A DNA stretch of 10,170 nucleotides. Source: a virus. Its lineage: Duplodnaviria; Heunggongvirae; Uroviricota; Caudoviricetes. The stretch covers positions 1 through 10,170 of IMG/VR virus record IMGVR_UViG_2609460354_000005, one strand, 5' to 3'. The notes beneath the pieces are model-generated. The model had not been told where the DNA came from. It saw only the letters and a program-made list of their open reading frames with translations, and did not search any database. Both the position numbers and the translations under genes were made by a program. This document shows positions 92-10,170 of this stretch, in pieces. Positions within the stretch are counted from its first letter, which is position 1. Every line of letters begins with the position of its first letter.

Positions 92-168
92 TGGCGCGCT
101 GTACTGGATTCGAATCAGTGACCGATTGCTTAGAAGGCAATTGCTCTGTCCGGCTGAGCTAACAACGC
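92..168 (-). tRNA. tRNA-Arg (anticodon UCU), phage-borne, argN-like
   Basis: Reverse complement folds as a 77-nt cloverleaf ending in CCA: 7-bp acceptor stem (one G-U), D-stem GCUC/GAGC, anticodon stem AUUGC/GCAAU with loop CUUCUAA (U33, UCU, A37), T-loop UUCGAAU. The T-stem pair next to the loop is A-C rather than the usual G-C. Position downstream of Q and tR' matches the ileZ-argN arrangement of Stx-type lambdoid phages (from memory). Confidence 0.75.
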
Positions 169-268: not shown

Positions 269-344
269 TGGTGGCCCTTGCTGGATTTGAACCAGCGACC
301 TGGCGATTATGAGTCGCTCGCTCTCACCACTGAGCTAAAGGGCC
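269..344 (-). tRNA. tRNA with anticodon CAU, ileX/ileZ-like (tRNA-Ile2, lysidine-type, or Met)
   Basis: Reverse complement is a 76-nt cloverleaf GGCCCUU...AAGGGCCACCA with anticodon loop CUCAUAA and T-loop UUCAAAU. It closely resembles my recollection of E. coli ileX; Ile versus Met identity cannot be decided from sequence alone. Confidence 0.8.
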
Positions 345-3455: not shown

Positions 3456-3487
3456 AAAATAAAAACAAAAACCCGCCGAAGCGGGTT
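3456..3487 (-). terminator. Rho-independent terminator at the 3' end of the hok mRNA
   Basis: Minus strand: ACCCGC-UUCG-GCGGGU (UUCG tetraloop) followed by UUUUUGUUUUUAUUUU, about 70 nt downstream of the hok stop. Confidence 0.7.
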
Positions 3488-3555: not shown

Positions 3556-3711
3556 TTACTCCTCAGGTTCGTAAGCTGTGAAGACAGCGACCTCCGTCTG
3601 GCCGGTTCGGATTCGTACCTCGCAGAGGTCTTTCCTCGTTACCAGTGCCGTCACTATGACGGTTAAACAGATGACGATCAGGGCGATTAACATCGCCTTT
3701 TGCTGCTTCAT
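3556..3711 (-). CDS. hokD: Hok-family type I toxin (HokD/RelF-like, 51 aa)
   Basis: Internal ATG of the 70-aa track ORF gives MKQQKAMLIALIVICLTVIVTALVTRKDLCEVRIRTGQTEVAVFTAYEPEE: single transmembrane helix plus conserved Hok C-terminus. AAGGAGAAG Shine-Dalgarno lies 7-8 nt upstream. Confidence 0.85.
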   Translation of the reverse strand: MKQQKAMLIALIVICLTVIVTALVTRKDLCEVRIRTGQTEVAVFTAYEPEE

Positions 3712-3768
3712 AGCCTGCTTCTCCTTGCCTTTCGGCACGTAAGAGGCTAACCTACATGTGTCTAGCAT
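3556..3768 (-). CDS. mok-like overlapping reading frame (N-terminally extended frame sharing the hok stop)
   Basis: In-frame ATG 19 codons upstream of hok, same stop; mirrors the mokC/hokC arrangement in K-12 as I recall it. Confidence 0.5.
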   Translation of the reverse strand: MLDTCRLASYVPKGKEKQAMKQQKAMLIALIVICLTVIVTALVTRKDLCEVRIRTGQTEVAVFTAYEPEE

Positions 3769-3835
3769 GAAATTGGCCTCAGATTAATGTTAAGCGTCTC
3801 GCAGGACGCGTAATGTTAACTGGGGCTTTTCTCTA
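3758..3835 (+). ncRNA. Putative Sok-like antisense RNA with promoter (approximate)
   Basis: Inferred from hok/sok architecture: antisense to the mok start region. Plus-strand TTGCCT (3725-3730), 17-bp spacer, TAACCT (3748-3753) could drive it. Ends not defined; no clear terminator found. Confidence 0.3.
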
Positions 3836-4176
3836 TCTGCCGTTGGTGTTCATGCCCGAGGCAGATAGCCTCAAGCACCCGCAGCCATTCTACTTAACTA
3901 CCGTTACCTCGCCAATGTGAAATCAGTCAGAAAGGCGATCCATAAGAACAATAGCAAGACAATAAATCGCCATTACAGCCGTAATAGCCAGCGCACATTT
4001 GAGAACCAGCACCACAACCTCCTGTATTGGACGTACACCAGTCCTGATGAATATGAGGCTGTCTCGTCAGTGATTCAATACAACTATTGGGTATAGTTTC
4101 TCTGATTTTTTCTGTGGAAATGGGGCTCAACCACTAGTCATTTAATACGCAAAGTCCGATACAAGCTAACCTTCTA

Positions 4177-4260: not shown

Positions 4261-4899
4261 TTAACCACAGATGATATTGAAACGTTCTCCGGAAATCTTG
4301 ACCATAATGTCAGACAGTTTGCTGACGGCATGGGCTTCAGATGATCCCAGAGCGTCAGGCTGAACAGCTATTACCGAAGCTCCACTTGCCAGCCCTGCTT
4401 TTATACCCGCAGATGCATCCTCAAATACCACGCATTCACCAGGCTCAAGGCCCAAAGCCAAAGCTGCTTTGATGTAACCCTCGGGACTTGGTTTTCCCGT
4501 CATTACATCTTCTGCACACACCATTACTATGGGTAAGGGGAGATTAGCCGCTTTCATCCTGTTTTCGGCAAGCATTCTGCCTGCAGAAGTGACAAGTGCC
4601 CAGCTATCCGGTGGCAGTTTTGATAAGAGTGCAGCGGCCCCTTTTACTTCAGTAACGCCTTCTGTCATGTTGATTTCAACCTCTTCGAGTGAGGCCGCGA
4701 TTTTATTGGTTTTCTCACCTGCACCAATAAAATGCGTCAGTGTATCAATCGTTTGCCGCCCGTGTGCGTAAGCAATCACAGCCTGAGTATCAAGACCGTA
4801 TTCTGCACAAAAATCTCTCCAGACGCTTTCCACTACGGCTGTTGAATCAACCAGCGTACCGTCCATATCGAATAAAAAACCCTTAGCGTTGAATATCAT
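4261..4899 (-). CDS. HAD-superfamily hydrolase (subfamily IA, beta-phosphoglucomutase / sugar-phosphatase-like)
   Basis: Motif I FDMDGTLVDS (DxDGT), motif II LVTSAG, conserved Lys in GKPSPEG, motif IV FEDASAGIKAG. Start placed at the second ATG (4899), which has AAGGA at optimal spacing; the track ORF begins 2 codons earlier at 4905. Confidence 0.8.
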   Translation of the reverse strand: MIFNAKGFLFDMDGTLVDSTAVVESVWRDFCAEYGLDTQAVIAYAHGRQTIDTLTHFIGAGEKTNKIAASLEEVEINMTEGVTEVKGAAALLSKLPPDSWALVTSAGRMLAENRMKAANLPLPIVMVCAEDVMTGKPSPEGYIKAALALGLEPGECVVFEDASAGIKAGLASGASVIAVQPDALGSSEAHAVSKLSDIMVKISGERFNIICG

Positions 4900-4928
4900 T
4901 GCCATTCCTTAATGGTTGCAGAAGAAAG

Positions 4929-5567
4929 TTAATCAAACCATGTTTTTTCATCACCTTTCGCTACTCTCAGGCTGACAGCAATCTGCTCAGGCACAATTCT
5001 TGAAAGCGACAATTCAGGCAGGTCGTTGACATCAAAAAAATCAGCATCGAGTGACTCATGGCTGATTGACAGGCTGCCACCTACTTCTTCACAGAGAAAA
5101 ATCAGCTTGTAAACATGCCAGGGTAAAGGCGGATGGCCGTGAAGATTACGATCCCAAACTCCCAATAGTTTAGTCACTCTGACTTTTAATCCGGTTTCTT
5201 CTTCGACTTCTCGACGCACAGCTTCAGAAGGTGTATCTCCAACATCTGCCCATCCGCCAGGAAGACTCCATAATCCATCTGCAGCCTCTTTCACCATCAG
5301 AATACGATTATTACGCAGGATAAACGCACGCACATCTGTTTTGGGCGTCGCGTAACCCGTTTCCGATACATGAAACAAATCATTGCGGCTAATATCAAAC
5401 TGCGAACTCAGCAGTCCAGCGGCAATTTCACGCAAGGCTTCATAGCGTTCCTTGTCAAAGACGTCTTTTGAATAGGTCAGGCCTGACTGCGCGAGGGCCT
5501 TTAGTCTCTGGGCAACAAAAATAAGCTTTTCTTGGGTCAACACTTCAGACATGTTTTTCATCTTCAT
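4929..5567 (-). CDS. Nudix hydrolase with N-terminal extension (Nudix_N-type, ADP-ribose pyrophosphatase-like)
   Basis: Near-canonical Nudix box GWADVGDTPSEAVRREVEEETGL preceded by an approximately 70-aa N-terminal domain. About 25-30 nt upstream of the HAD gene on the same strand. Start codon uncertain (ATGs at 5567, 5561, 5552; no strong Shine-Dalgarno). Confidence 0.8.
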   Translation of the reverse strand: MKMKNMSEVLTQEKLIFVAQRLKALAQSGLTYSKDVFDKERYEALREIAAGLLSSQFDISRNDLFHVSETGYATPKTDVRAFILRNNRILMVKEAADGLWSLPGGWADVGDTPSEAVRREVEEETGLKVRVTKLLGVWDRNLHGHPPLPWHVYKLIFLCEEVGGSLSISHESLDADFFDVNDLPELSLSRIVPEQIAVSLRVAKGDEKTWFD

Positions 5568-7171: not shown

Positions 7172-7673
7172 AATTCCATCCAGCTTTTTGTTGGTATTGC
7201 TGTCGATACGCAAGTTTGAAAGCAATTGCTTTTTCTATAAGTTCGTCAGTTTCACGATCCACTACGGCAGGATCAGCAAAAAGCAGTCCGGACTCCACCA
7301 CATCGCCATATTCTTTGTTTAACCCGGCGATCATGTACGTGATGCTTTTTCCGTCACTAATTTCACGATACAACCTGAAATCATTAATCCGGATAGCCTC
7401 CATAATTGCAGGCACTAGCGCCGTGAACTTTTCACGCTTATCCCTAGTGTCGATAGCCTTCCAGCGTTCGAATATCTTCACTCGATTAACGCCAAGCGCT
7501 CGCTGATCAACCGCGCCACCTTCATCTGTGACACGCTGAACATCGATGTTCGGGCGCTCTTTCAAAGCCCAGAATGCTTCAGTGATTAATATCGTCGCCT
7601 GCTCCTGTGTCATTCCTGGTCGACATATCCAGGCATCCAGAGCCTCACGAGCCTGTTCAGGAGTGATTTTCAT
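7152..7673 (-). CDS. Hypothetical early protein (173 aa), possibly a YdaT-like / CII-analog regulator
   Basis: ATG ORF overlapping the cro-like stop and the initiator start. Sits between cro and the replication gene, where Rac carries ydaT. Family assignment is tentative. Confidence 0.4.
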   Translation of the reverse strand: MKITPEQAREALDAWICRPGMTQEQATILITEAFWALKERPNIDVQRVTDEGGAVDQRALGVNRVKIFERWKAIDTRDKREKFTALVPAIMEAIRINDFRLYREISDGKSITYMIAGLNKEYGDVVESGLLFADPAVVDRETDELIEKAIAFKLAYRQQYQQKAGWNYEPSFC

Positions 7674-7884
7674 TGTTCAACCGCCCCGCCCGCTTCGTCT
7701 TACGATATTCGTCATAAACTTTGGGATCATACTGAAGCTCCCCGCCAGATGCCTCCTGTAGACGCATCGCGCGACCTTCAGGAACTAGCTCTTGCCATTG
7801 AGAAACAGCAGATGGGTCAACGCCAGCAGCTTTCGCTACTTTGGCTTTCGTACCGTAAAAATTAATTACGTCTGATTTAAACAT
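7657..7884 (-). CDS. dicC: Cro-like repressor (DicC-type, 75 aa)
   Basis: Internal ATG at 7884 with GGAGGT Shine-Dalgarno (the track ORF starts at an upstream TTG). HTH-like segment VINFYGTKAKVAKAAGVDPSAVSQW. Divergent from the dicA-like gene. Confidence 0.6.
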   Translation of the reverse strand: MFKSDVINFYGTKAKVAKAAGVDPSAVSQWQELVPEGRAMRLQEASGGELQYDPKVYDEYRKTKRAGRLNNENHS

Positions 7885-7961: not shown

Positions 7962-8369
7962 ATGAACGAGAAAACTTTAGGTCAACGCATTAGAGAAAGA
8001 CGTAAGCAGGTAGGCTTAAGTCAAAACGGTTTAAGCAAAGCTGCTGGCGTATCTGGCTCATCAATTTCATTATGGGAAAGTGACCATACAGCCCCGCGCG
8101 GGCAAAATTTGCATCGCCTCGCCGAGGTATTGCAATGTTCACCAACCTGGATACTGTTTGGCGACGAGGACAAAACACCAGCTCCCCCTGTTTCACTCGA
8201 TAGTGCCTTAGACTTATCGGAAGATGAGTTAGAGATGCTGCGTTTGTATCGCGCACTTCCTAAATCAGAGCAACAAGCACAACTCAGCGAACTCCGCGCC
8301 CGCGTTGAGAATTTTAATCGCCTGTTCACCGAGCTATTAGAGGCTCGCAAACGCAACAAGCATCAATAA
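7962..8369 (+). CDS. dicA: DicA-like HTH (XRE-family) repressor, 135 aa
   Basis: From the internal ATG at 7962 the product is 135 aa, the length of K-12 DicA. Segment LHRLAEVLQCSPTWILFGDEDK and C-terminal LSELRARVENFNRLFTELLEARKR match my recollection of DicA. Confidence 0.8.
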   Translation: MNEKTLGQRIRERRKQVGLSQNGLSKAAGVSGSSISLWESDHTAPRGQNLHRLAEVLQCSPTWILFGDEDKTPAPPVSLDSALDLSEDELEMLRLYRALPKSEQQAQLSELRARVENFNRLFTELLEARKRNKHQ

Positions 8370-8561: not shown

Positions 8562-8717
8562 ATGGATACTATCGATCTTGGCAACAGCGAATCTCTGGTA
8601 TGTGGCGTGTTCCCCAACCAGGACGGTACGTTCACCGCAATGACGTATACCAAAAGCAAAACGTTTAAAACCGAATCTGGAGCGCGTCGCTGGCTGGAAA
8701 GAAACTCAGGTGAGTGA
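8562..8717 (+). CDS. ydfA: YdfA-like small protein (DUF1391, 51 aa)
   Basis: Internal ATG with GAGG Shine-Dalgarno; product MDTIDLGNSESLVCGVFPNQDGTFTAMTYTKSKTFKTESGARRWLERNSGE. Position after dicA as in Qin. Confidence 0.7.
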   Translation: MDTIDLGNSESLVCGVFPNQDGTFTAMTYTKSKTFKTESGARRWLERNSGE

Positions 8718-8718
8718 T

Positions 8719-9231
8719 ATGGATTTCGACACAATCATGGAAAAGGCTTACGAAGAATACTTCGAAGGCCTTGCCGAAGGCGAAGAAGCTCTCAGCTTCA
8801 GTGAGTTTAAACAGGCACTCAGAATAAGAATGTGCTCTCACAATGACGCGGAGCACAAATATGAGAAGCAAAATCAGACCGCAGAAAATTTTGTTCTGGA
8901 ACCCGGAGAAACGCTTTTCAAAATTCCCGTTACGTGCCCCATTTGCGGTTTTACATCAGAAGAACTTGACGACTCCTGTAATAATCAGGAAACAACCAAG
9001 TATGTCGAAGATGATACCGAGTGCGCACGAAGAACGATTATATCCACGAGTCCAAACTCCAGGACCAATAAATCTCACTTTGAGAGGGTGATTAATCCAC
9101 TCCCCCAAACCAATAAAAAAGATGCCGGAGGACAAAAAACCAATGGAACAACGGGATATCTGTCAAAAAAAGACGTTCCATTAAAGACAAACAACGCAGC
9201 GCCAACAACTGTAAGCGCTTTATACCAGTAA
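8719..9231 (+). CDS. Hypothetical protein (about 170 aa) at the ydfB/ydfC position
   Basis: ATG at 8719 preceded by AGGTGAG; acidic N-terminal half with a CPICGF motif, low-complexity Asn/Thr-rich C-terminus. Occupies the slot of the two short K-12 genes ydfB and ydfC. The 3' extent is uncertain. Confidence 0.5.
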   Translation: MDFDTIMEKAYEEYFEGLAEGEEALSFSEFKQALRIRMCSHNDAEHKYEKQNQTAENFVLEPGETLFKIPVTCPICGFTSEELDDSCNNQETTKYVEDDTECARRTIISTSPNSRTNKSHFERVINPLPQTNKKDAGGQKTNGTTGYLSKKDVPLKTNNAAPTTVSALYQ

Positions 9232-9552: not shown

Positions 9553-9610
9553 TTTTTGGTGACGTTTGGCGGTATCAGTTTTACTCCGTGACTGCTCTGC
9601 CGCCGTTTTT
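9553..9610 (+). ncRNA. dicF: DicF small regulatory RNA (ftsZ-targeting)
   Basis: TTTTTGGTGACGTTTGGCGGTATCAGTTTTACTCCGTGACTGCTCTGCCGCCG followed by TTTTT; near-identical to my recollection of K-12 dicF, including the GGCGG/CCGCC terminator stem. Lies between the ydfC-like ORF and dicB. Confidence 0.85.
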
Positions 9611-9779
9611 AAAGTGAATTTTGTGATGCGGTGAATGCGGCTAAGCGCACGCGGAACAGTTAAAACCAAAAACAGTGTTATGGGTGGATTCTCTGTATCC
9701 GACGTTAATTGTTAACTGGTTAACGTCACCTGGAGGCACCAGGCACTGCATCACAAAATTCATTGTTGAGGACGCGATA

Positions 9780-9989
9780 ATGAAAACGTTATTACCAAAC
9801 GTTAATACGTCTGAAGGTTGTTTTGAAATTGGTGTCACTATCAGTAACCCTGTATTTACTGAAGATGCCATTAACAAGAGAAAACAAGAACGGGAGCTAT
9901 TAAATAAAATATGCATTGTTTCAATGCTGGCTCGTTTACGTCTGATGCCAAAAGGATGTGCACAATGGGTAATGACTCCAACTTATTGA
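9780..9989 (+). CDS. dicB: Cell-division inhibitor DicB with a 7-residue C-terminal extension read from the IS1 end
   Basis: ATG at 9780 with GAGGA Shine-Dalgarno. The first 62 aa ([26 protein letters not shown]...MPKGCAQ) match DicB; the frame then continues WVMTPTY into IS1 before a TGA. Confidence 0.8.
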
Positions 9990-10170
9990 TAGTGTTTTAT
10001 GTTCAGATAATGCCCGATGACTTTGTCATGCAGCTCCACCGATTTTGAGAACGACAGCGACTTCCGTCCCAGCCGTGCCAGGTGCTGCCTCAGATTCAGG
10101 TTATGCCGCTCAATTCGCTGCGTATATCGCTTGCTGATTACGTGCAGCTTTCCCTTCAGGCGGGATTCAT
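9968..10170 (-). mobile_element. IS1 insertion sequence (partial; canonical right end, continues beyond the window)
   Basis: From 9968 the plus strand reads GGTAATGACTCCAACTTATTGATAGTGTTTTATGTTCAGATAATGCCCGATGAC..., the reverse complement of the IS1 terminal inverted repeat and insB 3' region, continuous to the window edge. Confidence 0.9.
9983..10170 (-). CDS. insB: IS1 transposase InsB, C-terminal part (partial CDS)
   Basis: Minus-strand frame ending ...HYLNIKHYQ with a TAA stop at 9983-9985; the start lies outside the window. Confidence 0.8.

Follow-up and report, generated by a model that had tools for sequence, protein, structure and literature searches.

An IS1A element within the dicB stop codon of a Qin-like prophage in Escherichia coli 2-156-04_S3_C3

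In the Qin-like prophage of Escherichia coli 2-156-04_S3_C3, a copy of the insertion sequence IS1 splits the stop codon of dicB after its second base, directly 3' of the ATG with which the overlapping gene ydfD begins. The dicB reading frame runs from its own last codon into the terminal repeat of the element, and the protein gains seven residues, WVMTPTY. Very probably, a single copy of IS1A transposed into this stop codon, and the event, with a tail that is functionally neutral, represents strain-specific decay of the prophage. The insertion is an ordinary one, of a known kind, and both the gene and the family of cryptic prophages to which it belongs are familiar. Its significance is small: it provides a clean example of IS1 insertion in a cryptic prophage. 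The lengthened protein is itself already known, having been deposited in RefSeq, and annotated as DicB, under the accession WP_072003911.1. We refer throughout to the stretch of DNA that was analyzed, 10,170 nucleotides in all, as ‘the window’; it is the entire contig JNPG01000031.1 of the draft assembly GCA_000703745.1. The features at its right end are as follows.

9768–9772, plus strand: Shine–Dalgarno sequence of dicB, GAGGA, 7 nt 5' of the ATG (read from the sequence)
9780–9965, plus strand: native coding part of dicB, 62 codons (100% identity to WP_000854559.1; Pfam PF05358)
9952–9967, plus strand: orphaned translation start of ydfD, comprising AAGGA (9952–9956) and ATG (9965–9967), placed by the native ATGA overlap
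9966–9967, plus strand: TG of the native TGA stop, the last native bases before IS1 (from alignment)
9966–9989, plus strand: the seven added codons, WVMTPTY, and the new TGA at 9987–9989 (from the list of open reading frames and the sequence; KDW09696.1 / WP_072003911.1)
9968–10170, minus strand: the right-end 203 bp of IS1A, with its transposase gene on the minus strand and its terminal inverted repeat starting at 9968 (203/203 identity)
9983–10170, minus strand: 3' end of the IS1 transposase gene (61 C-terminal codons, InsB part), interrupted by the end of the contig (Pfam PF03400, DDE_Tnp_IS1)

The identity of the gene is secure. Residues 1–62 of the window protein are identical, 62/62, to WP_000854559.1, the DicB of both K-12 RP437 and strain 15A, and to DicB of the Qin (Kim) cryptic prophage of K-12. 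The Pfam DicB family, PF05358, matches over positions 1–62 of 62 (136 bits, E = 2.8e-40), as befits a full-length member. The initial annotation had named the gene and given 62 residues as its native length, correctly in both cases. Translation starts at the ATG at 9780, and codon 62 is CAA, at 9963–9965. The codons that follow are TGG GTA ATG ACT CCA ACT TAT TGA, and these specify WVMTPTY and a stop, at 9987–9989, within the IS1 terminal repeat, just as had been read initially. Except for its first two bases, the whole of 9966–9989 is IS1 sequence. The product is therefore 69 residues long rather than the native 62, and is the same as that of the database entries KDW09696.1 and WP_072003911.1, ‘dicB family protein [Escherichia coli 2-156-04_S3_C3]’. 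A sequence search of the PDB found no solved structure of DicB.

Where the insertion lies can be seen by comparison with genomes that have no IS1 at this place. In the alignment, these read ...GCACAATGAATTC... at the end of dicB, and the TGA stop codon overlaps the ATG of ydfD. The native 3' end is ...GGA TGT GCA CAA TGA ATT C..., in which the dicB stop and the ydfD start form an ATGA overlap. The window follows the native sequence through ...CACAATG (9967), and then switches to GGTAATGACTCCAACTTATTGATAG..., the right end of IS1. In terms of the locus L001, the left flank ends at position 3468, and the dicB coding sequence there ends at 3469. The initial annotation put the insertion ‘exactly at’ the dicB stop codon. 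That location stands, and is refined here to a point inside the codon, after TG and directly after the ydfD ATG; its proposal that the native stop be looked for in dicB loci lacking IS1 is borne out by the overlapping TGA.

The element can be assigned with equal precision. From 9968 to 10170, 203/203 bases are identical to those of a complete, 768-bp IS1A in strain 33-6, the copy of which is annotated as ‘IS1-like element IS1A family transposase’. The terminal inverted repeat from 9968, GGTAATGACTCCAACTTATTGAT..., matches the ends of complete 768-bp IS1A copies. Among these, the complete 768-bp elements of PKF8, 94EC and 22F46 begin with the same first bases and have 9-bp target duplications on either side, and this fixes the end of the present copy at 9968. 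Both the element and its boundary had thus been recognized rightly at the outset. The sequence identities on the two sides of the junction are far beyond chance. The position of the insertion in a stop codon is not statistically remarkable, since many IS1 insertions are seen around dicB. In comparison with described IS1 insertions in operons and prophages of E. coli, the element and its terminal sequence are the same, an operon is likewise interrupted, and a reading frame likewise runs a few codons into the repeat. What differs is the site.

The junction is rare. The 69-residue protein occurs on one contig only among about 15 billion proteins, and none of the 40 members read, of the 610 in its 90% cluster, is a C-terminally longer DicB. 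The initial annotation had allowed that reference DicB proteins might end naturally in WVMTPTY; among those 40, none does. The exact dicB–IS1 junction, sought with an 86-base query, is absent from 5,426 complete E. coli genomes (0/5,426 with IS1 inside the dicB stop and after the ydfD start), where the query matched only as two pieces joined in one hit, with IS1 at least 63 bp away. An exact 38-base junction pattern found no match among the GTDB species representatives, which comprise one genome per species and so are uninformative on strains.

The prophage that surrounds the junction is, by its gene content, a Qin-like lambdoid prophage. Of the complete genomes, that of E. coli O111:H21 strain 15A is the closest, matching 93% of the window at 99.7% identity; there, ydfD, an exonuclease gene and an excisionase gene come after dicB, in that order. 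The principal features, other than those already given, are these.

92–168, minus strand: tRNA-Arg gene, anticodon tct
269–344, minus strand: tRNA-Met gene, anticodon cat
3556–3880, minus strand: hok/sok-type toxin–antitoxin module (sok RNA RF01794, 115 bits, at 3706–3880)
7657–7884: P22_Cro-like gene
7962–8369: DicA-like helix-turn-helix (HTH) repressor gene, intact
8562–8717: ydfA (DUF1391)
8719–9231, plus strand: open reading frame of 170 residues with no Pfam match on record, occupying the place of ydfB and ydfC of K-12
9554–9605, plus strand: DicF small RNA, intact, upstream in the dicB operon (Rfam RF00039, 72.5 bits; gathering score, 48; full-length match to model positions 1–52/52)

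dicB is found, then, in its accustomed setting, a lambdoid immunity region in which a DicA-type repressor gene, ydfA and DicF precede it. The order of genes upstream is that of Qin in K-12—a Cro-like gene in the place of dicC, the DicA-like repressor, ydfA, DicF and dicB. The two differ in that the window has the 170-residue open reading frame where K-12 has ydfB and ydfC, and in that the lambdoid gene set is more complete than that of Qin (Q, rusA, hok/sok and tRNAs). They differ, too, at the end of dicB: in K-12, the TGA is followed directly by ydfD, whereas in the window IS1 intervenes and DicB has 69 residues. We infer the native ATGA overlap of the present prophage from these relatives. 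Its other genes include those for antiterminator Q, RusA, a DUF968 protein, Rem, a DUF977 protein, a replication-type protein and YdaT. Both tRNA genes (92–344) share a strand with the Q gene and lie downstream. The sok RNA (3706–3880) overlaps a 70-codon minus-strand open reading frame at 3556–3768. Genes for a HAD-family hydrolase and a NUDIX hydrolase, at 4261–5567 on the minus strand, are situated between the replication genes and hok/sok, and look like cargo. In strain 15A, the region of the 170-residue reading frame (8719–9231) is interrupted by IS2.

The window ends inside the element, the right end of the contig lying 203 bp into IS1. Repeats such as IS1 are the usual break point of short-read assemblies, and the stop is most likely an assembler break, because IS1 is a multi-copy repeat. 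The right edge of the window is thus the end of a draft contig and not a biological boundary. The proposals of the initial annotation that the insertion cuts off the DNA downstream, and that IS1 may mark where the prophage was truncated, concern the far side of the element, which is outside the contig. Windows that end within an insertion sequence are usually contig ends, and permit no inference about what is beyond them. This one exemplifies how the end of a contig in a draft assembly can mimic biological truncation. The initial annotation took a heavy load of IS1 as pointing to a Shigella-like host; the source is an E. coli, and many complete E. coli genomes carry 40 or more pieces of IS1, so that such a load is not peculiar to Shigella.

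The likelier effect of the insertion is on ydfD and the genes beyond it, which would be uncoupled from the dicB operon. The product of ydfD causes lysis, which DicB offsets; the two genes overlap and are transcribed together (PMC8835842). In the window, the Shine–Dalgarno sequence and ATG of ydfD are still joined to dicB, ahead of IS1, and the ATG now opens a frame of 27 codons into IS1, with its stop at 10046–10048 (seen within the open reading frame at 9911–10048). This frame runs antisense to the end of the IS1 transposase gene. Classically, IS1 is polar in either orientation. With IS1 between dicB and ydfD, its polarity implies that ydfD, and exo, xis and int after it, should be disconnected from the promoter that DicA controls. 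With the DicA-like repressor gene intact, the operon is presumably kept silent for the most part.

The sequence of events can be pictured as follows. IS1A transposed into the early-left operon, which dicA controls, and split the dicB stop codon, TGA, after its G; dicB now ends seven codons later, at the TGA in the IS1 terminal repeat, to give the 69-residue protein. If the usual 9-bp duplication was made, it would be TGCACAATG; this would restore an ATG to ydfD, but neither its Shine–Dalgarno sequence nor its translational coupling to dicB. A simple insertion would then read ...GGCAGCATCACC-TGCACAATG-AATTCAGCATTTGCG..., in which the left end of IS1 is followed by the 9-bp duplication and then by ydfD, intact; read outward, that end of IS1 would be ...AAGTTGGCAGCATCACC. 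The lysis gene ydfD and the downstream exo, xis and int genes would have been disconnected from the operon, or else deleted by IS1 in an adjacent deletion. The event would be a neutral or mildly beneficial step in the decay of the prophage, confined to one strain, and of these neutral decay is the most likely.

Readings of the junction diverge on whether the DNA beyond the element was kept or lost. An IS1-mediated adjacent deletion may have followed the insertion, in which case IS1 marks the end of a truncated prophage that no longer has ydfD, exo, xis and int. Such a deletion is a special case of the explanation given above, and differs from it only beyond the far end of IS1, on which the window has no bearing. 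Its plausibility can be gauged from other copies of IS1 near dicB. At least seven complete E. coli genomes (L003–L009) have an insertion within approximately 1 kb of dicB, all at positions other than that in the window.

22F46: inside dicB, in the orientation of the window, with the duplication TACCAAACG
JX21CE8: at codon 8 of dicB, in the orientation of the window, with a deletion from codon 8 to the integrase gene
33-6: in ydfD, in the orientation of the window, with 32 bp lost
94EC (L008, 3054–3821): near the 3' end of the ydfD homologue, in the orientation of the window, with the duplication GATAAAGTT
E8: between ydfD and exo, in the orientation of the window, with about 218 bp lost
PKF8: in exo, in the orientation of the window, with the duplication AGTTCGACA
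300033: in exo, in the orientation of the window

Both junctions were identified in six of the seven, the tally leaving out L007, in which the far end was not identified. Three of these six (33-6, E8 and JX21CE8) have lost between 32 bp and several kb of adjacent DNA, and the other three (PKF8, 94EC and 22F46) are simple insertions with 9-bp duplications. With the two outcomes equally frequent, we regard a deletion at the present site as quite possible, though somewhat short of an even chance. These copies resemble that of the window in the element involved and in their neighborhood of roughly 1 kb. The resemblance is closest in 94EC, in which the ydfD homologue (annotated as a DUF1482 protein) acquires the same kind of tail, and has 77 residues instead of 63 by reading into IS1. 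Several of the others have disrupted dicB or ydfD, or removed DNA next to the element; the insertion in the window, by contrast, spares all 62 codons of DicB.

Two apparent patterns among these neighboring insertions were considered and rejected. The first is a bias in orientation. The search joined pieces of the same strand only, and found 11 insertions near dicB, every one in the orientation of the window; a synthetic query with IS1 flipped found the opposite orientation in 22 genomes, most of them belonging to one ETEC clone, so that the uniformity was an artefact of the search. The second is a hot spot for IS1 at dicB and ydfD. About 60,000 chromosomal places of IS1 in 5,331 genomes correspond to a density of about 2.2e-6 per bp, and this figure, multiplied by 8,900 dicB places, 835 bp and 0.5, leads to an expectation of about 8 neighbors in each orientation. 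The estimate is a rough one, and 11 and 22 were seen, the latter mostly clonal. The count near dicB is thus about what chance predicts, and gives no sign of a hot spot there, nor of selection.

As to the effect of the tail on DicB itself, the initial annotation supposed that a longer C-terminus could alter the MinC-dependent inhibition of division by DicB, and published experiments speak against this. Fusions of MBP or EGFP to the C-terminus (DicB-MBP, DicB-EGFP) are as lethal as the wild type, and DicB without its last eight residues is lethal still (PMC4967827). It is the N-terminus that is essential: loss of even Lys2, or masking of this end, weakens toxicity (PMC4967827). Since DicB tolerates both large C-terminal fusions and the loss of its last eight residues, the WVMTPTY tail is probably neutral in function, and the 69-residue protein is expected to retain MinC-dependent inhibition of division. 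These assays register gross toxicity under over-expression, and would overlook moderate shifts in activity or stability, as well as any consequence for the ManYZ or phage-exclusion phenotype. DicB blocks phages that use ManYZ, and its phage-exclusion and ManYZ phenotypes depend on its interaction with MinC (PMC6832061). Were the tail to alter DicB, the window would supply a ready-made natural allele for structure–function work on a small toxic protein, an outcome that the C-terminal fusions render unlikely.

The opposing reading is that the tail changes the activity or stability of DicB, and that the allele was selected, as a weakened inhibitor of division, for example, or as an anti-phage DicB freed from ydfD. 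It draws on the toxicity of DicB and YdfD when expressed, on the ability of DicB to block ManYZ-using phages (PMC6832061; PMC8835842) and on the recurrence of insertions near dicB and ydfD. That recurrence, however, is about what the genome-wide density of IS1 predicts. The 69-residue form is a singleton, DicA, the normal repressor of the operon, is intact in this prophage, and the fusions and the eight-residue deletion leave toxicity unimpaired (PMC4967827). We consider selection of this kind improbable. A broader form of the idea is that the insertion was favored because splitting the ATGA silences ydfD and keeps DicF, and a DicB that is fully active or subtly retuned, under DicA control, so that dicBF is domesticated for phage exclusion or control of division, or else because the tail measurably changes the stability of DicB or its interplay with MinC, ZipA or ManYZ. 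This, too, we judge to be decidedly improbable, and prefer insertion followed by neutral decay.

Two further readings would do away with the insertion altogether. The first is that the join is a chimera made by the assembler at a repeat. Support for the junction consists of a single draft contig, and that contig ends in a multi-copy repeat. A chimera would be expected within shared sequence, but dicB and IS1 share none here; the join coincides to the base with the start of the IS1 terminal repeat, as in genuine insertions, and it is followed by 203 bp of perfect IS1. An artefact is thus very improbable indeed. The second, a naturally longer DicB allele ending in WVMTPTY and unrelated to IS1, is refuted by the data: it is the IS1 terminal repeat that encodes the tail, residue 62 is the last that the Pfam model covers and no other C-terminally longer form is present among the 40 members read of the 610-member cluster.

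A longer DicB of another sort has been annotated in Shigella dysenteriae and Shigella flexneri (P0011; 93 aa), and was considered as a natural C-terminal extension and rejected, the extension being N-terminal. It stems from an upstream in-frame start, and is a variant of annotation in which the C-terminal end is unchanged. The upstream open frame of this 93-residue protein is present in the window also, from 9675.
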